Positions 7,717 through 40,841 of a stretch of 64,000 nt of DNA are shown piece after piece. Source of the stretch: an uncultured Acidobacteriota bacterium (lineage in GTDB: Bacteria > Acidobacteriota > Vicinamibacteria > Vicinamibacterales > Fen-181); contig CAVQXT010000003.1 in assembly GCA_963717945.1 (NCBI GenBank), forward strand, positions 1,342,622 through 1,406,621, in the 5' to 3' direction. How positions within the stretch are numbered: the first letter of the stretch is position 1; each line of letters opens with the position of its first letter. A program made the translations under genes and the position numbers. Under the pieces are notes generated by a model, which was not told the origin of the DNA, ran no database searches, and saw only the letters and a list, made by a program, of their open reading frames with translations.

Positions 7717-7723
7717 TCTGGGC

Positions 7724-11416: not shown

Positions 11417-11447
11417 GGCTTACGGCTTACGGCTTTCGGCTTACGGC
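11417..11447. repeat. Heptamer tandem repeat (GGCTTAC x4)
   Basis: The sequence reads ggcttac ggcttac ggctttc ggcttac ggc. Confidence 0.8.
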
Positions 11448-11486
11448 AGACGACCACGGCATCGATAGCGCTGCCCGGGATCAGCA

Positions 11487-11512
11487 GATAGCGCAGGGCT
11501 TCAGCCCTGCGC
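11487..11512. repeat. REP family A hairpin (GATA-GCGCAGGGC-TTCA-GCCCTGCGC)
   Basis: It has a perfect 9-bp stem and a 4-nt loop, and lies immediately downstream of the HD-protein stop. Confidence 0.8.
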
Positions 11513-11518
11513 GTCAGT

Positions 11519-12247
11519 TCAATACACCGCCGGCGGCGGGTATCGCCCCGGCCTGGTCGGCGCCGGCCGCAGCTCGCGCACGGCGGTCGAGAACTGCGCC
11601 GCGGCGTCGAGCAGCGCGGCCGCCAGCGGGTCCCCGGCCGGGAGGCGCCCGGCGGCAAGCTGCGCGACCGCCGAGTAGTGCCACGCGGTCAGCGCGCCGC
11701 CGCGGAAGCGGTCCAGCACGCCCAGGCCGTCCCGGCGGACGTCCTCGAGCGTGCAGGTGATGTTGTGCAGCGTGTCGGCGGCCTTGAGCGCCGCCTCGTC
11801 GCGCGAGGCCCCCGCCAGGTGGTCGAGGCGCTCCTTCTTCCGCTCCAGCCAGTCGCGGTGCTGCTTGCCGTCGTTCTTCGACTCGCTGACCGCCATCACC
11901 AGGTCGAACACCCTCGGCCCGAACTCGTCGAACAGGAATTGCAGGAACGCGGCCCTGAACTCCCACGCGTCGGAGGGCACCACCAGCCGGCCGCGCCCGG
12001 CCGCCTCGCTCAGCCGCTCCTGCAGGTCGAGGTTGCCGTACCGGGCGTCCTCGACCGTGTCGTGGAGCAGCGCGGCGGCGACCAGGTCCTCGTCGTACCC
12101 GTGGTCCTCGAGGATCCGCGCCACCGCGACCGGGTGCTTGATGTAGGGAATCTCGGTGCCCTTGCGCACGGCGCCGGCGTGCACGATGTCCGCGATCTGG
12201 AACGCGCGGTCGAGGCGCGGCGACGGACGGGCGAACGGATCGGTCAT
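11519..12247 (-). CDS. HD-domain phosphohydrolase (SpoT/RelA-type HD fold)
   Basis: The sequence from ATG 12247 reads MTDPFARP...YIKHPVAVARIL...AALLHDTVED. It shows the H..HD..ED metal-binding signature. Confidence 0.7.
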   Translation of the reverse strand: MTDPFARPSPRLDRAFQIADIVHAGAVRKGTEIPYIKHPVAVARILEDHGYDEDLVAAALLHDTVEDARYGNLDLQERLSEAAGRGRLVVPSDAWEFRAAFLQFLFDEFGPRVFDLVMAVSESKNDGKQHRDWLERKKERLDHLAGASRDEAALKAADTLHNITCTLEDVRRDGLGVLDRFRGGALTAWHYSAVAQLAAGRLPAGDPLAAALLDAAAQFSTAVRELRPAPTRPGRYPPPAVY

Positions 12248-12282
12248 GTCAGCTCCGTACGACGAGCGGCCGTCGCGCGCCG

Positions 12283-13536: not shown

Positions 13537-13579
13537 GGCAAATGCTACCACGGGCGGGCGTCGGCCGAGGCCTCCGCCC

Positions 13580-13611
13580 GGCTCTAGGCTCCGGGCTTCA
13601 GGCTCCGGGCC
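13580..13611. repeat. Heptamer tandem repeat (GGCTCYR x4)
   Basis: The sequence reads ggctcta ggctccg ggcttca ggctccg ggcc. Confidence 0.75.
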
Positions 13612-13632
13612 GGATCACGCTTGCATCGGTAG

Positions 13633-13652
13633 GGCAAGGCTTCAGCCTTGCC
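13633..13652. repeat. REP family A variant hairpin (GGCAAGGC-TTCA-GCCTTGCC)
   Basis: It has a perfect 8-bp stem and the same TTCA loop as the other family A copies. Confidence 0.6.
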
Positions 13653-13876
13653 TGGAGAAGAGCGTCCGGCAGGGATGAGATTCAACACACCGCGTCCGGA
13701 TGCGCGCTTGAGTCGGTCCCGACCGGGGCGTATGATGCGCGGCGGCAGTCCGCGCGGCCGCCAAGTCTATCGACCTCGGCGTGACCGACGGCCGGCTCAT
13801 GTGGCCCGTCCCTGTCGAGATGAGGTGAGCCAACCCCACCAGGCGAACGCTCCCATCGAACCCGTGAGCGGTAGTC

Positions 13877-14548
13877 ATGCACGATCTGCCCGTCTTTCGG
13901 AAGCCGGACCGATACAAGGCGAGCTCCTACCGGAGCTACAACTTCAAGATGCCCTCGTGCTACGACACGATGATCTGGACGAGGGAGGCTGAGCGCTGGA
14001 ATCGACTCCTGCTCGACCAGCTCGGGACGGAGATCGGGTCACTCGAGATCGTGGACGTCGGCTGCGCCACCGGCCGGCTCCTCGAGGCGATGGGCCGCGC
14101 CGGTGCGACGCGACTGTCGGGGATCGATCTGGCGCCGCGAATCCTGGACGTGGCGGCGGAGAGGCTGGCGAGGGCTGGCATCGCCGCGAGACTCTGTGTG
14201 GCGGACGCGGAGGACCGTCTGCCCTGGGATGACGGATCGTTCGATCTCGTGACGATGACCGCCGTGTTCCACCACTTCTTCAGGCCAGGCGACGCGCTGG
14301 TCGAGATCCGTCGCGTGCTGCGTCCCGGTGGCCGCCTGTTGCTCCTCGATCCATGCTTCTTCCCGCTCGTGCGGCAGATCTTGAACGTGGTCCTCTGGCT
14401 GGTTCCCCACGACGGAGACTGCCATTTCCATTCGCGGTCGGGTGCCGCCCGTCTTCTGGCCGGATCCGGATTCGACGTCCGGGCCGTTCGCCAAGTGGGG
14501 CTCGGCGTGTATCTCGCGGATTGCCGCAAGCCTGCCGCGCCTGTCTGA
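13877..14548 (+). CDS. Class I SAM-dependent methyltransferase
   Basis: Motif I is VDVGCATGRLL, the post-I acidic residue is GIDLA, and the sequence LRPGGRLLLLD is present. Confidence 0.75.
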   Translation: MHDLPVFRKPDRYKASSYRSYNFKMPSCYDTMIWTREAERWNRLLLDQLGTEIGSLEIVDVGCATGRLLEAMGRAGATRLSGIDLAPRILDVAAERLARAGIAARLCVADAEDRLPWDDGSFDLVTMTAVFHHFFRPGDALVEIRRVLRPGGRLLLLDPCFFPLVRQILNVVLWLVPHDGDCHFHSRSGAARLLAGSGFDVRAVRQVGLGVYLADCRKPAAPV

Positions 14549-14683
14549 GCGCCCGGAGGGCGTTCGGCGTGACACCCGGGCTGGCCGGGTGCCGAGAGCC
14601 TTGAGCCATCCCGGGCGGCACGGGCGTCCGCACGGGCGTCAGCACTTGACGCCGCCCATCGACTGAGCGACGATGCCTCGCCC

Positions 14684-18713: not shown

Positions 18714-20107
18714 GAGAGCCTCCTCGGGTCGCTGACCACTCCGGTCACGGCGGCCGCGGCGGCCGTGGCCGGGCTCGCGAGCATCGTGCGCCCGCCCTGA
18801 CCCTGGCGCCCCTCGAAGTTCCGGTTGCTCGTCGAGACCGCGCACTGTCCCGGCTGCAGCTGGTCGCCGTTCATCGCGATGCACATCGAGCAGCCGAACT
18901 CGCGCCACTCGGCGCCGGCGGAATGGAAGATCCGATCGAGGCCCTCGGCCTCCGCCTCGCGCTTCACGACCGCGGAGCCCGGGACCACCAGCGCCCTCAC
19001 GCCCGGCGCCACCCGGCGTCCCCGGAAAATGGCAGCGGCTTCGCGCAGGTCGGACACACGCCCGTTCGTGCAGCTGCCGATGAAGACGACGTCCACCGGG
19101 TGGCCGAGCAGCGGCTTGCCCGGTTCGATCTGCATGTAGTCGAGCGCCCGGGCGAGCGCTTGCCGCCCGGCGGGAGTGCCGGCCGACGCGGGTCCCGGCA
19201 CCTCGGCGTCGATGCGGATCGCCATGCCCGGGTTGGTCCCGAAGGTGATCATCGGCGCGATGTCGCCGCATTCGATCGCCACTTCCCGATCGAATCGCGC
19301 GCCGTCTTCGGTTCTGAGCGACCTCCATTGGCGGACGGCCGCGTCCCAGTGCCGGCCGGCGGGCGCGGCCGGCCGGCCCGCCAGGTAGTCGAACGTCGTC
19401 TCGTCTGGCGCGACCAGGCCGGCCCGGGCGCCGGCCTCGATCGACATGTTGCACAGCGTCATCCGCCGCTCCATCGAGAGCGCGCGGACGGCGGCGCCGG
19501 CGTACTCGATTACGTGGCCGGTGCCCCCGCCCACGCCGATCCTGGCGATGATCTCGAGCGCCAGGTCCTTGGCCGTGACGCTGTCGGGCAGGCGACCTTC
19601 GACGGTGATGCGCAGCGTCCTGGGCCGATGCTGCAGCAGGCACTGGCTCGCGAGCACCATCTCCACCTCGCTCGTCCCGATCCCGAAAGCCAGCGCCCCG
19701 AAGGCCCCGTGCGTGGCGGTGTGACTGTCGCCGCACACAATCGTCATGCCGGGCTGCGTCAGGCCCCGCTCGGGGCCGATGACGTGGACGATCCCCTGGT
19801 CGGGTTGCCCGCGCCCTGAGCACGGGACCCCGAACTCCCGGCAGTTGGTCTCGAGCTGCTCGATCTGGCGGGCCGCGATCCGGTCGGTGATCGGCACGCT
19901 CGCCGGGGTCGTCGGCACGCTGTGATCGACGGTCGCGAAGGTGAGGTCGGGCCGGCGCACGCGGATGCCGCGGGCGCGCAGACCGTGGAACGCTTGCGGT
20001 GAGGTCACCTCGTGGACGAGGTGGAGGTCGATGTAGAGAAGCGACGGCGCGCCCGGCGCGCTCGCAACCACGTGCGCATCCCAGATCTTGTCGATGATCG
20101 TACGCAT
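18710..20107 (-). CDS. leuC: 3-isopropylmalate dehydratase large subunit
   Basis: The sequence from ATG 20107 reads [14 protein letters not shown]...[17 protein letters not shown]. Aconitase-family motifs are present (CGDSHT, GSCTNGR, MCIAMN). Confidence 0.92.
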
Positions 20108-20114
20108 GTGAACC

Positions 20115-21212
20115 TCACCCCTCGGCGATCGCGTCTCGCACCGCGCGGCCGACCTCGGCCGTGGACGCCGGGCCGCCGACCGGCCTGAGATCGGCGGTTC
20201 GCGGACCCAGGGCCACGGCCCGGTCAATTGCCGCCTCGACGATCCGCGCCTCCTTGTGCAGCCCGAAGGTGTACGCGAGCATCGCCGCGACCGATCCGAT
20301 GGCGCCGAGCGGATTGGCCACGCCGCGCCCCGCGATATCGGGGGCCGACCCGTGGACCGGCTCGTACAACCCCGGCCGGACGCCGCTCGGTCTGCGCTCG
20401 CCGATGGACGCCGACGCCAGCATGCCGATCGACCCGCTCAGCACGGCCGCCTCGTCGCTCAGGATGTCGCCGAACAGGTTCTCGGTCAGGACGACGTCGA
20501 ACCGCCGCGGGTCGAGCACGAGCTGCATGGCACAGTTGTCGACATACAGGTGATCGAGCGTGACGTCGGGGTACCCGGCCGCAACCTCGACCACGACGCG
20601 GCGCCACAGCTGCGAGTTCTCGAGCACGTTCGCCTTGTCGACGCTCGTGACGCGGGCGCGTCGCGTCCTGGCCAGGTCGAACGCCACTCGGGCGACGCGC
20701 TCGATCTCCGGCCGCGTGTAGGTCAGCGTGTTGACCGCGCGCTCGTCGGCGCCGCTGCCCGCGACGCCGCGCGGCTCGCCGTAGTACAGCCCGGACGTGA
20801 GTTCGCGGACGATCACCAGGTCCGTCCCCTCGACGATGGCGTTCTTGAGCGGAGAGGCGTCGAGCAAGGCCGGCCAGGCGCGCGAGGGGCGGAGGTTGGC
20901 GAACGTGCCGAGCGCCTGGCGAAGCGCCAGCAGTCCACGCTCGGGCCGTCGCCCGGGCGGCAGGTGGTCGAATCCGGGCGCCCCGACCGCGCCCAGCAGC
21001 ACGGCGTCGGCCTCGAGCGCGCGGCGCAGCGTGTCGTCGGGCAGCGGCGACCCGGTCGCCTCGATGGCGGCGCCGCCGATGAGCCCGTGGACCTCGCGCA
21101 CCGAGTGGCCGAACGCGTCCGCCACACGCCGGAGCACCGCGACGGCCTCGGCCGTCACTTCCGGCCCGATGCCGTCGCCGGGGAGGATCAGAATGTTCAG
21201 ATCCATAGACAC
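20115..21212 (-). CDS. leuB: 3-isopropylmalate dehydrogenase
   Basis: The sequences [25 protein letters not shown] and GSAPDIAG are present. Confidence 0.92.
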
Positions 21213-21273
21213 ACAGACACCTTGCGATCTGGCGATCTTGCGATCGAGCGACCTGATGGCAGGCTGCCGGCTG

Positions 21274-21374
21274 CAGGCGTCGGGCTTCGGGCCTTATCAC
21301 GGGCGTCCCGGCAAGACAGACGCGCGTGACGCGGCCTGAAGTCCGAAGCCCGTAGCCCGAAGCCGAAGTCCGGC
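21274..21374. repeat. Intergenic repeat family D (inverted GGGCTTCGGGCC / GGCCTGAAG arms with heptamer-like extension) between leuA and leuB
   Basis: gcaggcgtcgggcttcgggcc ... gcgtgacgcggcctgaagtccgaagcccgtagcccgaagccgaagtccgg shares caggcgtcgggcttcgggcc and cgcgtgac..ggcctgaag with 27723-27789. Confidence 0.7.
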
Positions 21375-25032: not shown

Positions 25033-25125
25033 GGCTCTGGGCTCTCGGCTCTTGGCCGCGTCCGGCTCATGGCCCGGGCCCAGGGCCCGACAGAGCCGAG
25101 AGCCGAGAGCCGAGGGCCCAGGGCC
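25033..25125. repeat. Inverted pair of heptamer arrays (GGCTCTN left arm, GAGCCGA right arm) in a divergent promoter region
   Basis: ggctctgggctctcggctcttggcc (25033-57) opposes agagccgagagccgagagccgagggcccagggcc (25092-125). Confidence 0.85.
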
Positions 25126-28637: not shown

Positions 28638-28680
28638 TCCCTGATCCCCGATCCCCGATCCCTAAATCCCCTCTCCCCCG
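28604..28680. repeat. Heptamer tandem array (CCCYCGT/CCCYGAT, about 11 units) spanning two convergent gene ends
   Basis: The sequence reads cctcgtc ccccgtc ccccgtc cctcgtc cctgatc cctgatc cccgatc cccgatc cctaaat cccctct. It contains the TGA of the rluB-like gene (28635-37) and the TAG of cysE (28662-64). Confidence 0.85.
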
Positions 28681-29624
28681 GAATAATGGGTCTGCCTGGC
28701 TCCCGTCTGGCTCACGTGGCTGCCCGCCGGCACGCTGTGCGTCAGCCAGACGTTTCCGCCGATGACCGACCCCGCCCCGATCCTGATTCGCCCGAGCACG
28801 GTCGCCCCGCTGTAGATGATCACCTCGTCCTCGACGATCGGGTGGCGCGGGACTCCCTTGACGGGGTGGCCGTTCTCGTCGAGCGGGAAGCTGCGGGCGC
28901 CGAGCGTGACGCCCTGGTAGAGGCGGACCCGGCGGCCGATCTCGGACGTCTCGCCGATCACCACGCCCGTGCCGTGGTCGATGAAGAAGCTCTCGCCGAT
29001 GCGCGCGCCCGGGTGGATGTCGATGCCGGTCAGGCTGTGGGCGTGCTCGGTGATGATCCGCGGGAGCAGCGGCACCTCGAGCACGTAGAGTTCGTGCGCC
29101 AGGCGCTGGCACGTCAGCGCGAGGATCCCGGGGTAGCAGAGGATGGTCTCCGCCGGGCTCGTCGCAGCCGGGTCGCCCTCGTAGGCCGCGCGCACGTCGG
29201 TGGCCAGCAGGCGCTTGACCTCGGGCAGCCTCGACAGGAACTGCGCGCTGGCGGTGCGCGCCTTCTCCTCGCAGGCCGTGCAGCGCGTCGGGTCGCGCTC
29301 CTCGCAGGCGAAGCACTGCGCCCGCCGCACCTGGTCCTCGAGCGTCGCCATGGCGCGGTCGAGCGTCGCCCCGGCGTGAAACGCCATCGTCTCGGCGTTG
29401 ACGATCGCGCGGCCGCCGAAGTAGCCCGGGAACAGGACCGATCGCAGCTCGTCGACGGCCCAGGCGAGCGCGTCGCGCGAGGGCAGGGCCGAGTAGGCGA
29501 CGTTCCGCTCCTGCCGCGTCAGTCCCTCGTCGTGCTCGCACAACTGGCGGACGACCGACGACAGCGAGGCGGCCGAGGCCTTGTCGGCCCTCACGGGAGC
29601 CTGGTGGGCGGTGCGCGGGCTCAT
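28662..29624 (-). CDS. cysE: Serine O-acetyltransferase (long form)
   Basis: The hexapeptide-repeat core reads [40 protein letters not shown]. The ATG overlaps the cysK stop (ATGA). Confidence 0.88.
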
Positions 29625-30553
29625 GCCTGGTCCTCGTAGAGCCACGTGCTCAGGTAGCGTTCGCCCGTATCGGGAAGCACGACCACGATCAGCCGGTCGC
29701 GCGCCTCCTCGCGGGAGGCGACCTTCACCGCCGCCTCCATCGCGGCGCCGCAGGAGATCCCCGAGATGATCCCCTCCTCTTTGCCGAGCCGCCGCGCCAT
29801 GGCGCCGGCGGCCTCGTTGGACACCGTGATGACTTCGTCCACCAGGTCCATGCGGAGCACGTCGGGAACGAACCCCGCGCCGAGCCCCTGGATCTTGTGC
29901 GGCCCGGGCGCGCCGCCCGAGAGCACCGGCGACGCCGCCGGCTCGACGGCGATGGCGCGGAACGACGGCCTCCTCGGCTTGATGACCTCGCTGACGCCGG
30001 TGATCGTGCCGCCGGTGCCCACGCCGGCGACGAAGTAGTCGACCTTGCCGTCGGTGTCCCGCCAGATCTCCTCGGCGGTCGTCCGCCGGTGGACGTCCGG
30101 GTTCGCCGGGTTGGCGAACTGCTGGAGGATCAGGTACCGCGAATCGGACGCGGCCAGTTCCTGCGCGCGCCTGATGGCGCCGGGCATGCCTTCGCCGCCC
30201 GGCGTGAGGATCAGGTCGGCGCCGAACGCCTTGAGCAGCTTGCGTCGCTCGACGCTCGCCGAGTCCGGCATCATCAGCAGGAGCCGGTAGCCGCGGACCG
30301 CCGCGACGAAGGCCAGGCCGATGCCGGTGTTCCCGCTGGTCGGCTCGAGCAGGATCGTGTCGGGCTTGATCCGGGCGGCGCGCTCGGCCGCCTCGATCAT
30401 CGAGAGGCCGATGCGGTCCTTGACGCTGGAGCAGGGGTTGAAGCTTTCGAGCTTGGCGACGATGCGGCCGGGCAGGCCGGCGCCGATCCGGTTGATCGAG
30501 ACGAGCGGCGTGCGGCCGATGAGCGCGGTGATATCGGGGGCGATATTGGACAT
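29621..30553 (-). CDS. cysK: Cysteine synthase A (O-acetylserine sulfhydrylase)
   Basis: The sequence reads [12 protein letters not shown]...[16 protein letters not shown], which contains the PLP Lys, and GTGGTITG is present. Confidence 0.92.
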
Positions 30554-30577
30554 GTGGGGGCAGTCCTTTCTACCGAC

Positions 30578-30671
30578 AAATTCGGATCGGGACGAATTTC
30601 AGAATCTGCCAACATCACCTGGCAGATCGTACCACTCGTGGCAGATATTGAAATTCGTCCCGATCCAATTG
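30578..30671. mobile_element. Low-GC palindromic MITE-like element, copy 1
   Basis: The 28-bp arms are GGATCGGGACGAATTTCAGAATCTGCCA (30584-30611) and TGGCAGATATTGAAATTCGTCCCGATCC (30639-30666), with 26/28 complementary. An extra internal TGGCAG lies at 30620. The core is shared with 38501-38573. Confidence 0.6.
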
Positions 30672-30805
30672 TTCCCTGAAATCGAGCATAGCAGCCGGGC
30701 TGGCGCCGGCAAAGCTCAGCCTGGGCCGGCGAGGCACGGGTTCGGCCGGAGTAAGATCAATAGCTGGGGTTCGCCCAATTGGTGGACGACGGTCAGGGGG
30801 CTCGC

Positions 30806-31771
30806 ATGTCGATTATGAGAAGCGTGCTGCTCGCCGGGGCGGAGAGTGTCTGGTTGCGCGACCGGGCGATGCGCACGCCCTTCGTGCGCCGCTCGGTTTC
30901 GCGGTTCATGCCCGGCGAATCCCTGGACGACGCGCTCGGCGCGTGCCGCCGGCAGCAGGCCGAGCGCCACATCGGGACGCTGCTCACGCGACTGGGGGAG
31001 AATCTCTCCAGCCTGGCCGAGGCCGAAGCCGTGACCGCTCACTATTGCGACGTGATCGATCGCGTGGCGACGAGCGGCCTGGACGCGCACGCGTCGGTCA
31101 AGCTCACCCAGCTCGGGCTCGACCTCGGCGCCGACGCCTGCGAGCAGAACCTCCGCGAGCTTGTCACCCGCGCCGAGGCCCGTTCTCGCATGGTGTGGAT
31201 CGACATGGAGAGCAGCAAGTACGTCGATCCGACGATCGACCTGTTCCGCCGCGTGCGCGCGCGGTCTGCGGCGGTTGGATTGTGCCTGCAGGCGTATCTG
31301 CGCCGCACGCCCGCGGACCTCGAGGCGCTGCTGCCGCTCTCGCCGGCCATCCGCCTCGTGAAAGGCGCGTACCGCGAGGAGACGACCGTGGCCTTCCCGC
31401 GCAAGGCGGACGTGGACGAGCAGTTCTTCCGCCTCGCCTCGCGGCTGCTCGATCCGGGCCTTCCGGCGGGCACGTTTCTCGGCATCGGCACCCACGACGC
31501 GCGTCTGGTCAGCCGGTTGCGGGCGGTCATCGCCGCGCGGGGCGTCACGCCGACGGCGTACGAGTTCGCGATGCTCTACGGCATTCAGCGGCCGCTGCAG
31601 GCGCGCCTGGCGGAGGAGGGGGCCCCGCTGCGGGTGCTGGTCAGCTACGGCGAGTACTGGTTCCCGTGGTACATGCGCCGGCTCGCCGAGCGCCCGGCCA
31701 ACGTGCTGTTTGTCGCGAAGAGCCTCCTCGAGCGGCGAGAGGCGATCGCAAGATCACCTGACAATTCCTAG
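30806..31771 (+). CDS. Proline dehydrogenase (monofunctional PutA-like)
   Basis: The sequences SVKLTQLGL, IDMESSKY, LQAYL.R, RLVKGAY and YG..WFPWYMRRLAERPAN are present. Confidence 0.82.
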   Translation: MSIMRSVLLAGAESVWLRDRAMRTPFVRRSVSRFMPGESLDDALGACRRQQAERHIGTLLTRLGENLSSLAEAEAVTAHYCDVIDRVATSGLDAHASVKLTQLGLDLGADACEQNLRELVTRAEARSRMVWIDMESSKYVDPTIDLFRRVRARSAAVGLCLQAYLRRTPADLEALLPLSPAIRLVKGAYREETTVAFPRKADVDEQFFRLASRLLDPGLPAGTFLGIGTHDARLVSRLRAVIAARGVTPTAYEFAMLYGIQRPLQARLAEEGAPLRVLVSYGEYWFPWYMRRLAERPANVLFVAKSLLERREAIARSPDNS

Positions 31772-34700
31772 CGCTCGTGCGGCCACGACGATCCCGCCGG
31801 CGATCGGCGCGGCGACGGCCCCGCCGTCCTCCCCGTGCTCGACGAGCACGGCGAACGCCACGCGGGCAGGGGTGGCGGTCGTCGGGCGGCCGGCCGTCGG
31901 CGGCGCAGGCTCGTACGGCGCGAAGCCGACGAACCACGCGTGGGCCGCCGCATCCTGGACCTCGGCCGCTCCCGCGATCCCCGCGATTGCCGGCGCGACG
32001 TCCTTGACGCGCCGGCCGGTTCCCTCGACCGCCGCCCGGCGCATCGTGGCCGACAGCCACCGGGTCTCCTCGGGCGTCAAGACGGCGCGTGGCGCGGCGG
32101 TCCGACGATTGTTCTCGTCGAGGACCCATCGTCCCTGCGGCATGGCGCCGCCGGCCGCCAGCGCGGCGGCGACGCGCGCCATCTTGAACGGCGTGGCCAG
32201 CACCTGGCCCTGGCCGTACGCCTCGAACGGCAGCGTGGCGCGGACGGTCTCGTCCGACTCGGGCTGGCTCAAGGAGATCTCGAACAGCGCGGACGTCTCC
32301 TCGAGCGCGGGCGCGCCGAGGCGGAGTCCGAGTTGCGCGAAATAGGCGTTGCACCCCGCGATCAAGCCGCGCTCCATGTCGAGGCGGCCGTGGGGCGCGT
32401 GGTCCGAGGGGATGTCGCGGACGGGCTCCGGCCAGCCGGGCAGCCACTTGCCGGCGCCGCGGTCGGGCAACCGCTCGCAGGTGAACGCCTGCCTCCGAAG
32501 CGCCGGCTCGTTCCTCAAGACGGCCGCCGCGGTCACCAGGTCGAAACTCGACCCCGGCGGGTACAGCCCGTAGCGCACGCGGTCGAGGAGGCCGACGTCC
32601 GTGTCGTCCACCGTCGTGTCGCCGCCGGGCCGCGCGGCCGGTTGCGGAAGGACGACCGGCCACGGGTAACTCACCGACGCCAGCAGGTCGCCCTCGGGCG
32701 ACAGCACGACGGCCGCTCCCTCGCGCTGACCGGCCCGCTCCACGCCGGCCTTCAACAAGGCGGCCACCCGCTGCTGGAGCCGGATGTCGAGCGCCAGCCG
32801 CACGTCGCGCGGCCGATCGAGGATCCGCCTCACCGCCGGGTCGTTCGGATCGCCCCGGTGGCGCAGGAGCGGCACCAGCTCGCCCAGGTCGCGACGGATG
32901 ACCTTCGAGGTCACGCCGGTCTCCGGGTCGGTGATCTCGACGACGCGTGGATGGTCGTCGTAGCCGCGCAGGCGGGCGTCGAGATCGCGCTCGACAAACG
33001 ACGTGTTCGCGGCCGCCCAGTTGACCTGGCTGCGCCAGTCGCCCAGCAGGTGAAAGGTGAGGCCGCCGAACGGGTAGCACCGCGCGCCGCTCTGCGGGCA
33101 GGCGCCGGCGGGCGACACGCCCAGCTCGGCGAGCTCCCCGGCGTGCGCCTGCAGATCGGCCGGCCGGCTCGTCGCCAGCGGGATCCCGCGACGGTCGGTG
33201 ACCGTGCCGCGCACGATTTGCTGCGCCACGGCGAGCAGCCTCGGGTTGTACTCGAAGCGCCGCACGCCGTCGGCCTGCATCGCCAGCGCCGTGGCGGCGA
33301 CAAAGTGGTCGGCCCCGGCCGTCTGCACCCAGACGATCCGGCCGGCGACGATGACCAGGCCGGCGGTCAGCGCGACGCGCAGCCAGCCCGTCTGACGGGC
33401 GAACTCGACGCGCGTCGCTCCCGAGCCGGCCGGGCGGCCGATGGCCAGCAACACGCCGAAGGCGAAAAAGTTGGCGAGCATCGACGACCGGCCGTAGCTC
33501 AGGAACGGCGTCGTCACGCCGGTGAGCGGCATCAGGTCGAGCAGGCCGGCCGCGATGAGCAGCAACTGCGCGAAGATGCCGATCGTCAGCCCGAGCGCGA
33601 GGAAGAACGTCGCGTCGCCCGGCGTGCGGCGCGCGATCCGGAAGGCGCGGTAGGCCAGAGCGACGTAGAGGGCGAAGACGGTGAGCAGGCCGATGAGCCC
33701 GGTCTCCTCACCGAGAGCCGACAGGATGAGGTCGGTGTGCCCGGCCGGGATCAGGCGCGGGTCCCCCAGGCCGATGCCCGTCCCCCGGACGGCGCCGGTG
33801 CCGAGCGCCCAGAGCGCGTTCGCAATCTGGTCGCCGCCGCGCACGGCGTTGTCCCACGGCGACCACCACATCTGCACCCGCTGCGCCACCGTGTGCGGGT
33901 AGCCGGCCAGGTAGCCGCCCGCGAACCCGAACACCAGGAGGAGCAGGCCCAGCGCCGCCGCCCTCGCCCGGCCCCGGGCCACGATGTAGAGCCCGAGGAA
34001 CACGCCGCCCAGAACCAGCGCCGGCCCCAGGTCCTTCTGCAGGAAGAAGAACAGGAGCACCAGGCCCATGCCGACGGCGACGGGCAGCAGCACGAGACGG
34101 TCCCGGTCCCGGAGGGCCCTCCAGCGGTGTGCGAAGTGCCCGGCGAGGAAGATCATGACGAGCACGCGGATGGCTTCGACCGGCTGCGCGCCCATCAGGT
34201 TCACCTTGGCGTCGCTCGTCCCCGGCCCGCTGCCGAACGCGATGAGCAGCAGCGACAGGCCGACGGCGCCGGCCAGCGCCAGGTAACCCAGCCGTCGGCC
34301 GAGCCAGCGCTCGAAGTCGAAGGAGGCCGCGGCGGCGAGCACGAGACACCCGGCCGCGACGCCCTGCGCGAAGCGCACGAACAGCATCGGGTCCCGCACG
34401 GGGTCCCTGAGGCTCACCATCATCACGAACCCGATGCCGCACAGGGCGTGGACGATCGGCAGCAGCTGCGTGTCGCCGGTCGAGCGGCGCAGGCGCAGCC
34501 AGGCGTGCGCCAGGTAGAAGGGGAGCAGCAAGAGGAGCGAGGACCAGAGCAGGCTCTGGCGGAACTCGGACGGCGTGCGGACGACGACCGCGCGTCGCAG
34601 CGCCGCCAGCTGCGCCGCGGTCAGCAGCGGAATCGGGATGTCGGTCCGGTCCGGGCTCGCGGCCAGCTGATCGCGCCGCTCGGCGAACCGTTCCCTGAAC

Positions 34701-35062
34701 GACGGCAGGTGGCGCCTGGCCGGCAGATCGCGCTCGGTGACCGTGATCGTGCCGAGCGACCCGACGCCGGACGGCGTGCGGGGCCGCGCCCCCGGCCGGT
34801 CGGGCGCGGCGATCCAGGCGGCGACCCGGTCGGCCACGAACCGGCGCTCGTCCGGGTCGGCGACGATCGGCACGAGCAGGGGCAGCAGCGGCCCCGCCCG
34901 ATCGAGCCGGCTGACGTTGACCGCCCGGCCCGACGAGAGCGCCAGGTCCGTCTCGCGCAGTGCTTCCACGCGCGCGTTCCAGATGAGCCAGAGGCCGGAG
35001 AGCGTGACGAGCGACGCGGCGACGAGCCCGGTGAGCTCGGCACGGCGCGTGCGTTCCGTCAT
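31754..35062 (-). CDS. Fusion protein: N-terminal TM/linker, SEDS (RodA/FtsW) glycosyltransferase, and a class-B PBP with degenerate transpeptidase motifs
   Basis: The SEDS motifs IPAGHTDLILSALGEETGLIG and PLTGVTTPFLSYGRSS are intact. The PBP pedestal reads RGTVTDRRGIPLA. The transpeptidase fold context is kept, but SxxK reads SSFD, SxN reads GCN and KTGT reads IAGA. Confidence 0.85.
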   Translation of the reverse strand: MTERTRRAELTGLVAASLVTLSGLWLIWNARVEALRETDLALSSGRAVNVSRLDRAGPLLPLLVPIVADPDERRFVADRVAAWIAAPDRPGARPRTPSGVGSLGTITVTERDLPARRHLPSFRERFAERRDQLAASPDRTDIPIPLLTAAQLAALRRAVVVRTPSEFRQSLLWSSLLLLLPFYLAHAWLRLRRSTGDTQLLPIVHALCGIGFVMMVSLRDPVRDPMLFVRFAQGVAAGCLVLAAAASFDFERWLGRRLGYLALAGAVGLSLLLIAFGSGPGTSDAKVNLMGAQPVEAIRVLVMIFLAGHFAHRWRALRDRDRLVLLPVAVGMGLVLLFFFLQKDLGPALVLGGVFLGLYIVARGRARAAALGLLLLVFGFAGGYLAGYPHTVAQRVQMWWSPWDNAVRGGDQIANALWALGTGAVRGTGIGLGDPRLIPAGHTDLILSALGEETGLIGLLTVFALYVALAYRAFRIARRTPGDATFFLALGLTIGIFAQLLLIAAGLLDLMPLTGVTTPFLSYGRSSMLANFFAFGVLLAIGRPAGSGATRVEFARQTGWLRVALTAGLVIVAGRIVWVQTAGADHFVAATALAMQADGVRRFEYNPRLLAVAQQIVRGTVTDRRGIPLATSRPADLQAHAGELAELGVSPAGACPQSGARCYPFGGLTFHLLGDWRSQVNWAAANTSFVERDLDARLRGYDDHPRVVEITDPETGVTSKVIRRDLGELVPLLRHRGDPNDPAVRRILDRPRDVRLALDIRLQQRVAALLKAGVERAGQREGAAVVLSPEGDLLASVSYPWPVVLPQPAARPGGDTTVDDTDVGLLDRVRYGLYPPGSSFDLVTAAAVLRNEPALRRQAFTCERLPDRGAGKWLPGWPEPVRDIPSDHAPHGRLDMERGLIAGCNAYFAQLGLRLGAPALEETSALFEISLSQPESDETVRATLPFEAYGQGQVLATPFKMARVAAALAAGGAMPQGRWVLDENNRRTAAPRAVLTPEETRWLSATMRRAAVEGTGRRVKDVAPAIAGIAGAAEVQDAAAHAWFVGFAPYEPAPPTAGRPTTATPARVAFAVLVEHGEDGGAVAAPIAGGIVVAARALGIVR

Positions 35063-35089
35063 GGGCGGAGTTCTCCCGTCGCGTTCCCG

Positions 35090-35815
35090 CTAGACGCCGG
35101 CCACGCGGATCGCGAGCCAGCTCCCGAGCGCGAAGATGACCATCCACCTGAACAGACCGGCGAGCGTCAGCCGCATCATCGCGTCGGCGAACTCCCGGAC
35201 GAAGGCGAGCGGCAGCATCACGAACGCGGCGACATGCCCGCCCCGCAGCCACGCCGGCGCGGCGCGCCACTCGCAGTCGCCTGCGAGCATGGCGACGGCG
35301 CCGGTGCGGCTCATCACCGCCAGCGCCAGCGACCAGGCCGCGTAGACACCGAGCGCGCCCACCACAACGCGGAGCCACCAGGTGCGGGCGCCCCCGGGGC
35401 CTGAAAACCGGAGCACGGCGAGCGCGACCAGCAGCAGCAGGGTCCCGGCCAGCACGATGTCGGTCGGCTGACCGAGCATCACCGGCCCGTGCGCAATGTC
35501 GCTCCGCGAACCGGTCGCCGCGACCAGGAGGCCGAGCAGGAGGATGTAGGGCGCCGCGGGATCGGTCAGCCAGCCGCGCCCGCCGATCCGCCCGCCCCGC
35601 GACAGCACCCACAGCGTCAGGACGGCGAACCCCGCGACGGCGGCGACGACGATCGTTCGCATGGGCGAGCCGACCCGCCAGGTCTCGTACGCCGCGTCGA
35701 TGAGGAGCGCGTCGCCGGCCAGGCGGACGAGGAGGACGCCCAGGCGCGCGGCGAGCCTGCCGACGCGACGGCCGGGGCGGGTCTCGATGCCGATATCGGG
35801 CTGGGCCTCGCTCAT
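35090..35815 (-). CDS. Polytopic membrane protein, unknown function, probably co-transcribed with the SEDS-PBP fusion
   Basis: The 241-aa ORF has about 6 hydrophobic segments. It ends 27 nt upstream of the fusion ATG on the same strand. Confidence 0.55.
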   Translation of the reverse strand: MSEAQPDIGIETRPGRRVGRLAARLGVLLVRLAGDALLIDAAYETWRVGSPMRTIVVAAVAGFAVLTLWVLSRGGRIGGRGWLTDPAAPYILLLGLLVAATGSRSDIAHGPVMLGQPTDIVLAGTLLLLVALAVLRFSGPGGARTWWLRVVVGALGVYAAWSLALAVMSRTGAVAMLAGDCEWRAAPAWLRGGHVAAFVMLPLAFVREFADAMMRLTLAGLFRWMVIFALGSWLAIRVAGV

Positions 35816-35873
35816 GATCGTCGTCCGATCTTACCCGGAACGGCCCCGCTCGGGCCCGAACCTTCACAGTGGC

Positions 35874-36032
35874 GGCGCGGGCTTCCTGGCCCGCGGGATG
35901 GCCGGCGAGGACGCCGGCCCCACACCGTGTCTTGGTGGCGCGGGCCTCCTGGCCCGCGGGATGGCCGGCGAGGACGCCGGCCCCACACCGTGTCTTGGTG
36001 GCGCGGGCCTCCTGGCCCGCGGGATGGCCGGC
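35874..36032. repeat. 63-bp tandem repeat x2.5 (REP family E; two GC hairpins per unit)
   Basis: Units start at 35874, 35937 and 36000. Each unit contains GCGGGCC-TCCT-GGCCCGC and GGCCGGCG-AGGA-CGCCGGCC followed by CCACAC. Confidence 0.9.
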
Positions 36033-36068
36033 TCCCGCTTGATCTGGCGTGACCCGTGCAGTAGCGTG

Positions 36069-38477
36069 ATGGTCGTGTTCACCCAGCCGCTGGTGCCCGA
36101 GTCGATCGTCCATCCGGCCGAAGGACCCAGCCCGCGGTTGCTCGCCGGCGTGGCGCGCAACCTGGCGGCGGTGCCGGAGCTGTTCGCCGACCGGGCGCTC
36201 GCGGCGACCCTGGGCGCCCGCGAGACCGAGGGGCAGCCGCTCGCCATCCGCCGCGCGAGGATGCTCGCCCGGATCCTCGCCGACCACCCGATCGTCATCC
36301 AGGACGGCGAGGTGATCGTCGGGACGAAAACGCGGAAGCCCCGCGGCTCACCGGTCTATCCCGAGATCAACTGCGCCTGGGTGGAGCGCGACCTCGATCG
36401 GCTGGCCACCCGGTCGAACACGCCGTTCACCGTCGCCGAGAAGACCCGGCGCGCGCTCGGCGAGGAGGTCTTCCCGTACTGGCGCGGGCGCCAGGTGGCG
36501 GACCGGATCTTCGAGCAGGTTCCGCCGGCGATGTGGCGCGCCGACGACCGCGGCGTCCTCTACCACTACTTCCGCTCCCGCACGATCGGCCACATCAACG
36601 CCGGCTACGCGAAGGTGCTCGCGCTGGGCTTCGACGGGATTGCGGACGCCGCGCGGCAGGGGCTCGAGGCCCGGCAGGGTGATGGGCCCGAGGCCGCCTC
36701 CAGCCGCGAGATGCTGGCGTCGGTCATCCTCGCCTGCGAGGCCGCGGTGGCGTTTGCCCGGCGCCACGCCGCCGCCCTGCGCGAGCTGGCCGGGGCCGAG
36801 CCCGACGCCGCCCGCCGCGCCGAGCTCGCCCGCATGGCCGACGTGTGCGAGCGCGTGCCGGCCGCGCCGGCCCGCGGCTTCCACGAAGCGCTGCAGTCGA
36901 TGTGGTTCACGCACCTCGTGCTGAACCTCGAGACCGACGGGCACGCGTTCGGCCCCGGCCGCTTCGACCAGTATCTCTACCCGCACTATCGCCGCTCGAT
37001 CGAGACCGGCGAGCTGAACGAAGCGCAGGCGCAGGAACTGCTCGACCTGATGTGGGTCAAGTTCGACGAGATCACGCTGGCCAAGGACTCCGGCGAGGCC
37101 GGGACCAGCAGCTCGTACCCGGAGTTCCAGAACCTGAACATCGGGGGGCTGACGCGCGACGGCCGCGACGCGACCAACGAGCTGTCCTACATGTGCCTCG
37201 CCGCGCTCGAGCGCACGAGGCTGCCGCAGCCAGGGTTGTCGGCCCAGATCAGCTCCCGGACCTCGTCGCGTTTCCTGCTGCGCTGCTGCGAGCTGCTGCG
37301 GCTCGGTCTTGGCATGCCGGCCATGTTCAACGCCGACACCCTCGTGCTCGGGATGGTGAACCGGGGCAAGACGCTCGAGGACGCGCGCGCCAGCAGCCTC
37401 AACGGCTGCGTTGCCTGCTTCTGCGACGGCAAGGACCGGATGGCGTCGAGCGGCTACTTCAACCTGGCCAAGTGCCTCGAGCTGGCGCTCGGCGACGGCC
37501 GCGACCGCCTCACGGGGGAACGGCTGGGGCCGGCCACCGGCGACCCGCGCGCGTTCGCCACGTTCGACGACGTGCTGCAGGCGTTCCGGGCGCAGGTGGC
37601 GCACTTCGTCGACGAGAAGATCCGCTACGACGGCATCGTCCGGCAGGTGTACGCGGCCTATTGCCCGGTGCCGTTCACCTCGGCGGTGATCGACGACTGC
37701 GTCGAGAAGGGGCTCGACTGGCACGCGGGCGGCGCGCGCTACAACATCTCCACGATCTCGGGCGTCGCCGTCGGCACGGTGGCCGACGCGCTGTCGGCGA
37801 TACGGACGCACGTCTTCGAGCGGCGGACGGTCACGATGGCGCAGTTGGTGGACGCGCTGGACCGCGACTGGGAGGGGCACGAGGTGCTGCGCGAGCTGCT
37901 CGTGAACAAGACGCCCCACTACGGGAACGACGATGACGGGCCCGACGCCCTGGCGGCGCTGACCGAGGGGATCTTCTGCGACCAGGTGGAGGCGCACCGC
38001 GACGTGCAGGGCGCGCGCTACTGGGTGGACCTGCTGCCGACGACGGCGCACGTGGCGCTCGGCCAGGTGACCGGGGCCACGCCGGACGGCCGCCGCGCCG
38101 GCACGCCGCTGTCCGAAGGCGTGTCCGCCGTGCAGGGGCACGACCGCCGGGGGCCGACCGCCGCGGCGGCCTCGGTCGCCAAGCTGGACCACGCCCGCAC
38201 CAACGGCACGCTGCTCAACATGCGGATCAACCCGGACTGCCTGCGCACCATCCACGACTTGCGCAAGCTGGCGGCCCTCATCCGCGGCTACTTCGACCAG
38301 GGCGGCCATCACGTCCAGTTCAACATCGTCGATCGCGCGGTGCTCGAGGACGCGATGGCGCACCCCGAGCAGCACCGCGACCTGGTGGTGCGCGTGGCCG
38401 GGTACTCGGATTACTTCGTGCTGCTCAGCCCGGACATCCAGAGGGAGATCTTGTCGCGGACCGAACATGGACTCTGA
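36069..38477 (+). CDS. Glycyl radical enzyme (PFL2/glycerol-dehydratase-like family), substrate unknown
   Basis: The C-terminal glycine loop is VRVAGYSDYFVLLSPDIQREILSRTEH, with Gly at codon 38400-38402. The N-terminal region matches the PFL2 pattern (IVIQDGEVIVG, YWRG). The thiyl loop is NGCVACFC (Cys 37407-37409). Confidence 0.85.
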   Translation: MVVFTQPLVPESIVHPAEGPSPRLLAGVARNLAAVPELFADRALAATLGARETEGQPLAIRRARMLARILADHPIVIQDGEVIVGTKTRKPRGSPVYPEINCAWVERDLDRLATRSNTPFTVAEKTRRALGEEVFPYWRGRQVADRIFEQVPPAMWRADDRGVLYHYFRSRTIGHINAGYAKVLALGFDGIADAARQGLEARQGDGPEAASSREMLASVILACEAAVAFARRHAAALRELAGAEPDAARRAELARMADVCERVPAAPARGFHEALQSMWFTHLVLNLETDGHAFGPGRFDQYLYPHYRRSIETGELNEAQAQELLDLMWVKFDEITLAKDSGEAGTSSSYPEFQNLNIGGLTRDGRDATNELSYMCLAALERTRLPQPGLSAQISSRTSSRFLLRCCELLRLGLGMPAMFNADTLVLGMVNRGKTLEDARASSLNGCVACFCDGKDRMASSGYFNLAKCLELALGDGRDRLTGERLGPATGDPRAFATFDDVLQAFRAQVAHFVDEKIRYDGIVRQVYAAYCPVPFTSAVIDDCVEKGLDWHAGGARYNISTISGVAVGTVADALSAIRTHVFERRTVTMAQLVDALDRDWEGHEVLRELLVNKTPHYGNDDDGPDALAALTEGIFCDQVEAHRDVQGARYWVDLLPTTAHVALGQVTGATPDGRRAGTPLSEGVSAVQGHDRRGPTAAAASVAKLDHARTNGTLLNMRINPDCLRTIHDLRKLAALIRGYFDQGGHHVQFNIVDRAVLEDAMAHPEQHRDLVVRVAGYSDYFVLLSPDIQREILSRTEHGL

Positions 38478-38500
38478 CAATTCGGTCCGCTCCCCGTGGC

Positions 38501-38573
38501 GTAATTCGATCGGGACGAATTTCAGTTTCTGCCAACCTGGCACGGAAGTTGTAATTCGTCCCGATCCAATTAC
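38501..38573. mobile_element. Low-GC palindromic MITE-like element, copy 2
   Basis: GTAATTCGATCGGGACGAATTTCAGTTTCTGCCAACCTGGCA....AATTCGTCCCGATCCAATTAC shares the core and the CTGCCAAC..CTGGCA centre with copy 1. Its right end contains the TAA stop of the OCD-family gene. Confidence 0.6.
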
Positions 38574-39673
38574 AGAAATCGCGACCCCAGCCCGGCCGTG
38601 CTGGCGCGCCCGAACGCCAGCAGCGCGATCGCCGTGTCTTGCACCCCGACGCCGGTGAGCGCGCAGACGGTGATCTCGTCGTCGCGGTCGCGGCCCGGGA
38701 GCCGGCCCGACGTCAGGTCGCCCAGCTCGGCGACCGCGGCGCCCTCGGCCAGCACGCCCGCCGCCCGCGCGTGGTAGAACTCGCCGCGCGCGAAACACTG
38801 CGTCTTCAGGTCGCAGGCGAGGCGCGTGGCGCGGCCGAGCACCTCGCCGTCGAGCTCCTGCTTCTCGGGGGTGTCGGCGCCCATCGCGGTGATGTGCAGG
38901 CCGGCGTGCAGCCAGCCGGCCCTGACGACCGGCTCGTGCGACGGCGTGCACGTGATGACGACGTCGCTCTGGCGGACCAGCGCCTCCGGGTCGGCAGCCT
39001 CGACGCGAACGGGAGCACCGGCACCGCCCGTGCCGGGCGCCGCGCGATCTTCACCGAGCACGCCCGGCATCTCGCGCACGTAGGCCTCGACGGCCGCCGG
39101 AGACCGGTCGTACACGAGCACGCGCTCGAACGACCGGACCAGCTGCAGCGCGCGCACCTGGTAGCGGCCCTGGGCCCCGGCGCCGATCACGCCGACCGTC
39201 CGCACCTGCCGCGGCGCCAGGTGCTTCGCGGCGGCCGCTCCGGCCAGAGCCGTGCGAACGTCGGTGAGGTAGCCGTTGTCGAGGAGGATCGCCTGCGGGT
39301 ACCCCGTGCGCGCGCTGAGCACGACCATCAGGCCGCTGCCGCTCGCGAGCCCCCACGTGCCGTTGTCGAAGAACCCCGAGGCGATCTTGATGGCGAGGCT
39401 CGGCAGGCCGTGGATGTAGGCGGCCTTCACGTCCACCTCTCCGTGGCGGTCCGGCACGAACAGCCCGAGGATCGGCGGCACGTCCGCCTCGCCGCGAGCG
39501 AGTTGCGTGAACGCGTTCTCGACCGCCGCCAGGGCCTCGAGATCCAGTTCGACGACCTCCCGGAGCTCGCGTTCGGTGAGGACCAGGATCGGATCGCGGC
39601 GCGGGGCGGCGCCCTCTTCCGCTCCGGCCGACGACGAGGGCGGACCCGTGGGGCTGTGGTGCTCGGTGCGCAT
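38570..39673 (-). CDS. Ornithine cyclodeaminase / mu-crystallin family NAD(P)-dependent enzyme
   Basis: The Rossmann motif is VGVIGAGAQGRYQ, followed by DVVITCT.S..PV and ITAMGADTPEKQELD. The start is taken at ATG 39673; an alternative lies at 39727. Confidence 0.8.
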   Translation of the reverse strand: MRTEHHSPTGPPSSSAGAEEGAAPRRDPILVLTERELREVVELDLEALAAVENAFTQLARGEADVPPILGLFVPDRHGEVDVKAAYIHGLPSLAIKIASGFFDNGTWGLASGSGLMVVLSARTGYPQAILLDNGYLTDVRTALAGAAAAKHLAPRQVRTVGVIGAGAQGRYQVRALQLVRSFERVLVYDRSPAAVEAYVREMPGVLGEDRAAPGTGGAGAPVRVEAADPEALVRQSDVVITCTPSHEPVVRAGWLHAGLHITAMGADTPEKQELDGEVLGRATRLACDLKTQCFARGEFYHARAAGVLAEGAAVAELGDLTSGRLPGRDRDDEITVCALTGVGVQDTAIALLAFGRASTAGLGSRFL

Positions 39674-39725
39674 GGCGCATAGAATATACGCGCCTGGCAT
39701 ATTTCGTCCCCGGAGAAACACCGAC

Positions 39726-40841
39726 ATGAAAATCCCCGTCTTCGAGATGGAACGGATGCAGTCGACCTGGGAGAACCTCGTCGACTACGACATGAGCGAG
39801 AGCGGCGTCCGCCCGATCTCCCTGCGCGGCCTCGTCGAGATGGGGTTCGACCTCGACGCGGCCCTCGACCTGCCGCTCGGCTACAGCCAGTCGAACGGCA
39901 CGCTCCCGCTCAGGGAGCGCCTCGCCGCCCTCTATCCCGGCTCGACGGTTGACCACATCGAAGTGACCAACGGCACCTCGGAGGCGAACTACCTGGTCGC
40001 CCTCTCGCTGCTCGAGCCGGGTGACGAGATGGCCATGGAGCTGCCCAACTACATGCAGCTCCGGGGAGTGCCCGAGAGCCTCCAGGCGAAGGTCCGGACG
40101 TTCACCCTCCGCCCGGACCGCCAGTGGGAGCCGGACTGGGAGGAATTCGAGCGGGCCGTCACGCCGCGCACGCGGCTGCTGTATCTCTCGAACCCGAACA
40201 ACCCGTCGGGGGCCGTGCTCTCCGACGCCGCGATGCGGCGCATCGTCGCCCGGTGCGAGGAGACGGGCACGGTCGTCCTGGCCGACGAGGTCTATCTCGG
40301 CGCCGAGGTGGAGGGGGAGCGGACGAGGAGCTTCTGGGGCCTGAGCGACCGCGTGGTCGTCACGAGCGGTCTCTCGAAGGCCTACGGCATTCCCGGCGTG
40401 CGCGTCGGGTGGATCGTCGGCCCGCCGCGCCTGGTCGAAACCTGCTGGAGCCAGCACGACTACCTGACGATCGGCCCCAACAAGCTGTCGGACCTGGTGG
40501 CCAGGGTGGCCGTCGCGCCCGACAACCGCGAGGCGCTCTACGCGCGCACCCGCGCCATCCTCCGCGAGAACCTGCCGATCGTCGAACGGTGGGCGGCAGG
40601 TTTCGGCCGCCTGCTCGAGTTCAACCGGCCGCGAGCCGGGGCCATGACGCTCGTGCGATACCGGTCCGAAGTGCCGAGCCTCGACCTGTGCGAGCGGATC
40701 CGCGTCGAGCAGAGCACGCTGGTGGTGCCCGGCCGCCACGTCGGCCTCGAAGGCTACCTTCGCATTTGGTACGGCGGCAGGCAGGAGTACATCACCGAGG
40801 GCCTCCGGCGCATCGGCGCCGTGCTCTCGACGCTGGGCTGA
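39726..40841 (+). CDS. Class I/II PLP-dependent aminotransferase
   Basis: The sequences SQSNGTLPLRERLA, LSNPNNPSG and SGLSKAYGIPGVRVGW (PLP Lys) are present. The gene is divergent from the OCD-family gene. Confidence 0.85.
   Translation: MKIPVFEMERMQSTWENLVDYDMSESGVRPISLRGLVEMGFDLDAALDLPLGYSQSNGTLPLRERLAALYPGSTVDHIEVTNGTSEANYLVALSLLEPGDEMAMELPNYMQLRGVPESLQAKVRTFTLRPDRQWEPDWEEFERAVTPRTRLLYLSNPNNPSGAVLSDAAMRRIVARCEETGTVVLADEVYLGAEVEGERTRSFWGLSDRVVVTSGLSKAYGIPGVRVGWIVGPPRLVETCWSQHDYLTIGPNKLSDLVARVAVAPDNREALYARTRAILRENLPIVERWAAGFGRLLEFNRPRAGAMTLVRYRSEVPSLDLCERIRVEQSTLVVPGRHVGLEGYLRIWYGGRQEYITEGLRRIGAVLSTLG

Follow-up and report, generated by a model that had tools for sequence, protein, structure and literature searches.

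The 64,000-nucleotide (64-kb) stretch of contig CAVQXT010000003.1 (assembly GCA_963717945.1) that was analyzed, here called the window, comes from an uncultured Acidobacteriota bacterium. A gene on its minus strand (31754–35062) encodes a natural fusion of a SEDS glycosyltransferase to a penicillin-binding protein of class B (bPBP) whose three transpeptidase (TP) active-site boxes are all substituted. The gene is one open reading frame (ORF) of 1102 amino acids plus stop, and it lies outside the dcw and mre clusters. A first-pass annotation made from the DNA alone had proposed such a single-ORF fusion, and the ORF, the SEDS family (PF01098), and the transpeptidase family (PF00905) were all recovered. 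PF01098 matches residues 199–542 (E = 3.8e-51, 174.6 bits against a cut-off of 26.4), and PF00905 matches residues 827–1089 (E = 9.3e-13, 48.5 bits against a cut-off of 22.1); both exceed the Pfam gathering scores. The NCBIfam model pbp2_mrdA covers residues 752–1093. The features of the locus are as follows.

31754–35062, minus strand: SEDS-bPBP fusion gene (ORF, Pfam, >115 full-length homologues, short-read contigs).
34490–35062, minus strand: N-terminal extension, residues 1–191, with a cytoplasmic tail, transmembrane (TM) helix 7–44, a periplasmic domain of ~120 residues, and TM helix 164–191 (AlphaFold2 (AF2) model).
33428–34468, minus strand: SEDS glycosyltransferase core, residues 199–545, ten TM helices (Pfam, alignments to FtsW/RodA structures in the PDB).
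33731–33739, minus strand: HTD motif, residues 442–444 (alignment to 8tj3_B).
34100–34117, minus strand: shortened cytoplasmic loop after residue 318 (alignment).
33323–33427, minus strand: cytoplasmic linker and bPBP membrane anchor, residues 546–580 (helix 552–580 in the AF2 model).
32663–33322, minus strand: bPBP pedestal/head region, residues 581–800 (Foldseek against PbpA, omega 0.22).
31757–32662, minus strand: transpeptidase-fold domain, residues 801–1102, catalytically degenerate (PF00905; predicted local distance difference test (pLDDT) mostly 85–95; omega 0.26).
32540–32551, minus strand: SxxK box, reading SSFD (alignments; identical in the sister-strain contig L001).
32348–32356, minus strand: SxN box, reading GCN (alignments; short-read contig X2:61773).
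31967–31978, minus strand: KTGT box, reading IAGA (alignments).
35063–35089, minus strand: 27-nt junction, a deletion scar (sequence, synteny).
35090–35815, minus strand: 241-amino acid helical membrane ORF (ORF list, AF2 model).

The TP boxes were positioned by HMMER alignments to solved bPBPs. At the SxxK box, PGSSFD falls on PGSTFK, which gives SSFD at residues 838–841 (nt 32551–32540); the nucleophile-position serine, S838, is kept and the lysine is replaced (K841D). The segment LIAGCNAYFAQLG aligns at the SxN box, which reads GCN at residues 903–905 (nt 32356–32348; S903G). At the KTGT box, GIAGAAE falls on GKTGTAE, which gives IAGA at residues 1029–1032 (K1029I, T1030A, T1032A). The same three substitutions had been read in the first-pass annotation, and these alignments place no canonical box elsewhere in the TP domain. 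One coordinate changes: the four IAGA codons occupy 31978–31967 rather than 31978–31970. Loss of the SxxK lysine abolishes acylation in PBPs and β-lactamases. The SEDS half is intact, as had been claimed from its hallmark motifs. Aligned to Escherichia coli RodA (8tj3_B), D444 of the HTD motif corresponds to the essential D262, E296 in a QPSE-type (QPxE) loop to E114, and D344 in the QxDLG loop to the aspartate of QPDLG. These three acidic residues are invariant across 115 sequences.

The remaining parts of the protein were assigned from structure models. In Foldseek, the bPBP half matched Mycobacterium tuberculosis PbpA best (TM score 0.74, E = 2e-17, ~530 aligned columns). PF03717 (PBP dimerization/pedestal) has no Pfam match in the fusion at E ≤ 0.01; the modeled TM helix 552–580 and mixed α/β region 581–800 align structurally with PbpA and PBP2. 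The N terminus had been described as one TM helix plus a linker, and the model replaces this description with two TM helices (7–44 and 164–191) around a periplasmic domain of ~120 residues.

The fusion family is large, and most of it is catalytically canonical. A protein search retrieved >115 full-length homologues of ~1100 residues with 46–86% identity to the window protein (the query), and the named ones belong to the Acidobacteriota, Vicinamibacterales or Bryobacteraceae. All homologues at ≤71% identity carry S[STA]FK, SCN, and KTGT. In a library clustered at 50%, the boxes are canonical in 64/64 full-length representatives in which the three boxes aligned. Other independent dead-TP lineages were sought in this library and rejected, the non-canonical matches all being fragments of ≤846 residues. 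A distant match (32% identity, query residues 394–1091) was seen at 10001–14659 of a locus from a Lachnospiraceae metagenome-assembled genome (MAG), CANQGL010000003.1 (L013). It takes in the PBP half and some of the SEDS half and suggests an independent Firmicutes SEDS-bPBP fusion.

The SxxK lysine is absent from the query and 14 library homologues (P0001–P0013 and P0018). These sequences are monophyletic in 100/100 bootstraps of a neighbor-joining tree built with the motif columns excluded, and their sister is the canonical P0014–P0017 group. A genome-collection locus that is ~80% identical to the query and is not among the sequences of the tree (L011) reads SSFS, so it has lost the lysine too, and it shares the synteny of the clade. 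The survey of related genomes that had been proposed from the first reading thus found a widespread fusion with the substitutions confined to one monophyletic clade. The idea that this copy alone is decaying was rejected, because the state is common to the query, the 14 library homologues, and L011. The dead TP is a derived trait of this clade. The codon at 841 is AAG in canonical members and ACG, GAC, GGC, GGG, or AGC across the clade (G, D, A, T, or S), and this variety indicates several substitutions at a drifting site. The KTG lysine position (1029) is occupied by K, Q, E, L, V, S, M, or I, and the SxN serine position by S, A, or G. S838 is retained in 14/15 clade members, and the clade shows no conserved substitute for the general base. 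This erosion of the boxes, stepwise toward the crown group of the query, is the pattern expected of a site that turned neutral after its function was lost.

Selection on the domains was estimated as omega, the median pairwise Nei-Gojobori (NG86) ratio of nonsynonymous (dN) to synonymous (dS) divergence, in the degenerate clade and in its canonical relatives. Omega is 0.26 in the degenerate clade versus 0.17 in canonical relatives for the TP domain, 0.22 versus 0.16 for the pedestal, and 0.22 versus 0.12 for SEDS. The N-terminal extension is the least constrained region (0.44 versus 0.33). Relaxed selection specific to the TP domain was not found; dN(TP)/dN(SEDS) in the degenerate clade (1.67) equals or undercuts its value among canonical relatives (1.83). 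At least 80% of the clade keeps 72/85 canonical-invariant TP positions (those that do not vary in canonical members), and 109/116 such positions are kept in the SEDS core. In the pedestal, every such position reaches the 80% threshold. The 13 lost TP positions are K841, S903, K1029, T1030, T1032, E1034, Y949 of YGQG, Y1079 of the GGYGG loop, and five positions in a single loop at 868–887. Among short-read and NCBI sequences of the clade, the ORF is intact throughout (1101–1135 residues). On this sequence evidence, the TP domain is retained under purifying selection and is not in random decay. Retention follows from the shared, clade-wide loss and from a TP omega of ~0.26 with no TP-specific relaxation, not from the open frame. 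The first-pass annotation had also favored a retained fold; that conclusion holds, but the 3.3-kb open frame offered for it carries little weight on its own. ORF length says little here because the DNA is 72–74% GC, and a spurious 1189-amino acid ORF runs antisense to the fusion (31835–35404, plus strand), along with other long ORFs in alternative frames.

The lysine-lost loci also differ from their canonical relatives in what surrounds the fusion. The canonical gene order is a forkhead-associated (FHA) protein, a PP2C phosphatase, a Ser/Thr kinase, the fusion, and then a protein of ~260–265 residues with weak FHA and FhaA_N matches. Genes of this module are present in the 12 canonical loci that have enough flanking sequence. 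In contrast, all four are absent from 12 lysine-lost loci, the deep-branching P0018 (L030) included, and no FHA, PP2C, or Ser/Thr kinase copies were found at the query locus or elsewhere within the 64-kb window. In the closest canonical relative (L028), the 241-residue membrane ORF lies upstream of the FHA gene. A 4.7-kb block is missing from the degenerate clade, which leaves this ORF 31–137 nt from the fusion. The junction at 35063–35089 is the site where canonical relatives hold 4.7 kb of FHA, PP2C, and Ser/Thr kinase genes. The L028 kinase matched Pkinase only, with no PASTA domain match. Two further observations concern the L028 cluster: its PP2C protein (6268–7971) carries a C-terminal right-handed β-helix domain (PF13229), an unusual pairing, and both FHA proteins that flank the fusion have weak FhaA_N matches.

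Features on the cytoplasmic side of the fusion have eroded as well. A Ser/Thr-rich, N-terminal cytoplasmic tail, M-x-I-T-x-S-T-A-A-E-R, is conserved throughout the family from 46% identity up and is deleted in the crown group (the query and P0001–P0008). It is located at 10001–10070 of L028 and in the window would follow codon 4 (~35051). For the neighboring kinase, the tail is a candidate site of phosphorylation or of FHA binding. The crown group also lacks some 17 residues that canonical and early-branching relatives have in the cytoplasmic loop after residue 318. Outside the TP domain, the canonical-invariant positions lost in the clade are Y309, P321, Y324, Y484, and P557; the first three neighbor the shortened loop, and P557 is kept in 0/15 clade members. 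All five lie on the cytoplasmic side of the modeled topology (5/5, Fisher p = 0.0012), and with a looser threshold the count is 8/10 (p = 0.0007). We infer that the eroded cytoplasmic features formed the contact surface with the kinase, the phosphatase, or the FHA proteins.

The explanation that we favor, with moderate confidence, is that the gene encodes a glycan polymerase no longer under kinase control but still carrying a non-catalytic bPBP module. The product would be a single-chain synthase of the RodA-PbpA type with an intact SEDS half and a bPBP half that, as part of this explanation and held with it, is probably incapable of acyl transfer. It descends from catalytically canonical SEDS-bPBP fusions of Acidobacteriota (Vicinamibacterales-like). 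The ancestor of the subclade would have lost the four signaling genes together with the SxxK lysine. The active-site cleft would then have drifted at the KTG box, the SxN serine, the YGQG and GGYGG loops, and one cleft loop. The cytoplasmic features presumed to have taken the kinase/FHA signal (the Ser/Thr-rich tail, one loop, and five invariant residues) would have eroded as well, with the remainder of the protein kept by purifying selection. The protein is predicted to still polymerize lipid II into glycan strands. The dead bPBP may persist because the fused SEDS requires its pedestal and fold to stay active or in position. This activator role is suggested by engineered TP-dead bPBPs, which behave in this way (PMC12713402). 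Any cross-linking of the product would have to come in trans, from another PBP or an LD-transpeptidase. A narrower version is possible but more tentative: the bPBP is a built-in activator or scaffold, and the enzyme was freed from Ser/Thr kinase/FHA control in the same step, leaving a constitutively competent polymerase whose product would be cross-linked in trans or left un-cross-linked.

The main rival is the slow decay of a redundant synthase, which we consider unlikely. It holds that an accessory, kinase-regulated third synthase became dispensable when its regulatory genes were lost and is degrading piecemeal, first at the active site and then at the N-terminal tail and cytoplasmic loop, with the remaining conservation due to limited time or a weak residual benefit. 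Several results fit this course and weigh against a retained, working polymerase. Four neighboring genes went along with the catalytic lysine, the TP boxes have eroded progressively and by multiple hits, and the crown group carries additional deletions. Omega exceeds its canonical level in every domain, by ~50–80% over the whole protein, as estimated by a method (NG86) that is crude at this GC3, probably underestimates dS, and draws on non-independent pairs. By the same method and in the same genome pairs, the fusion (0.29) tops the range of the neighboring genes, which runs from 0.14 (aminotransferase, PFL-like) to 0.26 (VTT membrane protein); the value for the 241-residue ORF is 0.38. The correlation between module loss and the dead TP is most simply one ancestral event, and it counts as one evolutionary observation and not 12 independent ones. 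The organisms of the clade are uncultured. On the other hand, omega for SEDS, pedestal, and TP is 0.22–0.26 at pair dS of 0.3–0.8, far under 1, and the clade-wide intact ORF speaks against decay too. Frameshifted copies occur only in long-read assemblies, and short-read contigs back the window frame at the sites disputed by L001. The SEDS catalytic residues are fully conserved, and the pedestal invariants all pass the 80% threshold. The losses are limited to two surfaces and are not protein-wide.

A quite improbable alternative is that the TP fold was neofunctionalized for non-covalent binding of peptidoglycan stem peptides or some other ligand and now acts as a sensor or anchor by which the fused polymerase is targeted or gated. 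PBP folds have been reused as sensors, for example in BlaR1 and MecR1. The conservation of the TP scaffold (72/85 invariant positions) and the presence of S838 in most members would suit such a role. However, the residues that line the cleft are exactly those lost. The replacements are varied (K841 to G/D/A/T/S; K1029 to I/M/V/S/Q/L/E) with no newly conserved residues, and a cleft that drifts without new conservation makes selected cleft-based binding less likely. A transpeptidase that is still active through alternative residues, or that has switched to other hydrolytic chemistry, is very improbable: S838 persists in nearly every clade member, but the query is hit in all three boxes, no substitute general base is conserved in the clade, and the established enzymology of the SxxK lysine leaves no acylation.

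Least credible of all is an assembly artifact, in which two separate genes, or a pseudogene, would lie behind the ORF and errors in the consensus behind the motif changes. This reading draws on L001, a sister-strain contig that is 99.5% identical to the window and comes from an ENA assembly with long-read-style contig names. In L001 the fusion gene is split by three insertions of 1 bp each (window positions 34902, 32950, and 32359), one of which adjoins the SxN box, and it yields P0035, truncated at 868 residues. The frame break raised in the first-pass annotation was looked at with short-read contigs from independent soil metagenomes. They span all three insertion sites gap-free, with no indel, and one of them (X2:61773) matches the window identically over 32246–32411, the GCN box included. 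L001 itself has single-base indels in the Tricorn-like and PFL-like genes (window positions 44139 and 36413), and its SxxK and KTG codons are those of the window. The SSFD and GCN of the query recur in P0006, which comes from another study, and the window frame aligns end to end with >115 homologues. The frameshift or two-gene reading was therefore rejected. A long-read MFD MAG (L012) is also frameshifted in the fusion and was left out of the analysis. Gene calls from the L001 and L012 assemblies give misleading truncated proteins, of which P0035 is an example. L001 also carries a DDE transposase (insertion sequence) insertion at 20029–21366, corresponding to window ~25113–25118, which the window lacks.

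The 241-residue ORF ends 27 nt upstream of the fusion, as first annotated. A GGGAGA Shine-Dalgarno-like site (35077–35072) lies 9 nt before the fusion ATG, and no terminator-like site was found between the two genes. Given this spacing, site, and lack of a terminator, co-transcription is plausible. The ORF belongs to a small hypothetical membrane-protein family with 52 lineage-restricted homologues and has no Pfam or NCBIfam match. Its AF2 model is a helical bundle (pLDDT 87) with no fold match in the PDB (best E = 0.4). A role as a dedicated partner was rejected, because the ORF adjoins the fusion in the deletion clade only; in canonical relatives it lies 4.7 kb or ~9 kb away or was not found within 6–10 kb of flank. 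The adjacency is secondary, brought about by deletion of the 4.7 kb of intervening signaling genes, so the earlier claim keeps its spacing and plausible co-transcription but does not extend to a family-wide partnership. A scan of 31.4–36.4 kb found no promoter-like site and one terminator-like site (36345–36331), which lies upstream of the operon region and is at chance level.

The wider neighborhood is metabolic. The genes at 28662–31771 and 36100–39727 are unrelated to the cell wall and include serine acetyltransferase, cysteine synthase, proline dehydrogenase, a PFL-like glycyl-radical enzyme, and ornithine cyclodeaminase. No further SEDS or PBP genes were found in the 64-kb window. The proline dehydrogenase gene is convergent with the fusion, and its mechanical ORF overlaps the fusion 3' end by 18 nt. 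A 63-bp tandem repeat (35870–36032; 2.6 copies, 98% identity) lies between the divergent 241-residue ORF and PFL-like glycyl-radical genes. The repeat unit holds a GC-rich palindrome (GGCCGGCG...CGCCGGCC), and the repeat inflates the mechanical ORF at 35661–38477 to 938 residues.

If the favored explanation of a polymerase with a retained, non-catalytic bPBP module is true, the clade is a natural separation-of-function experiment. A class B PBP has two jobs, cross-linking and switching on SEDS, that have so far been separated only by laboratory point mutants. The clade would provide natural evidence that the activating or scaffolding role suffices to maintain a bPBP domain, and it would hint at a coupling of TP activity to phospho-regulation in this synthase family. 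The co-loss of the FHA-PP2C-kinase module and the cytoplasmic features offers a testable link between Ser/Thr phosphorylation and a synthase outside the Actinobacteria. A single polypeptide that needs no co-expression is convenient for structural and biochemical study of SEDS activation, and the canonical sisters at ~70% identity are built-in controls. No natural catalytically dead bPBP or "pseudoenzyme" PBP was found in the literature searched, an absence there and not proof.

Catalytically dead enzyme folds kept as regulators of another peptidoglycan enzyme are known from the degenerate LytM factors EnvC and NlpD, although their fold is unrelated to that of the query, their partner is an amidase, and there is no fusion. 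The fusion itself is already known. A 2025 study (PMC12516126) described natural SEDS-bPBP fusions, with 117 proteins in InterPro, and regarded them as putative "bifunctional class B" synthases. Like the query, they place glycosyltransferase (FtsW/RodA/SpoVE), pedestal, and transpeptidase in one polypeptide encoded outside the dcw cluster, as in the 947-residue protein of Rhodococcus jostii RHA1, and the Pedobacter ginsengisoli fusion has Ser/Thr kinase and phosphatase genes alongside. An additional module at the N terminus, made up of two TM helices with a periplasmic domain, sets the query family apart from these fusions. The published ones are regarded as bifunctional, with no degenerate member reported, whereas the query subclade has lost the TP boxes and had its kinase and phosphatase neighbors deleted. 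What is new is this transpeptidase-dead subclade without the kinase module.

In Actinobacteria, the PbpA gene sits in an fhaA-fhaB-pstP-rodA-pbpA-pknA-pknB cluster (PMC6554272). The likeness is twofold: PbpA (3UN7) is the best match of the bPBP half, and the canonical relatives of the query sit among FHA, PP2C, and Ser/Thr kinase genes. However, the actinobacterial RodA and PbpA are separate proteins and PbpA is active, while the query-family kinase has no PASTA match, the gene order differs, and the window lacks the signaling genes. The resemblance is one of organization, not orthology. In RodA-PBP2 and FtsW-FtsI (6PL5, 8BH1, 8TJ3), the bPBP allosterically activates SEDS, and both halves of the query match these partners in sequence. 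The fusion hard-wires their 1:1 pairing. The pedestal is the activating element in those complexes and is the best-kept part of the bPBP in the query clade. Their bPBP also cross-links, whereas that of the query presumably cannot. The closest functional parallels are engineered. A Bacillus subtilis PBP2b catalytic mutant and Clostridioides difficile SpoVD S311A show that the bPBP is needed while acyl transfer is dispensable, with another enzyme doing the cross-linking (PMC12713402). Those proteins are laboratory point mutants of the nucleophile serine; in contrast, the state in the query clade is natural and clade-fixed, and it involves loss of the general-base lysine and other boxes with the serine mostly kept.

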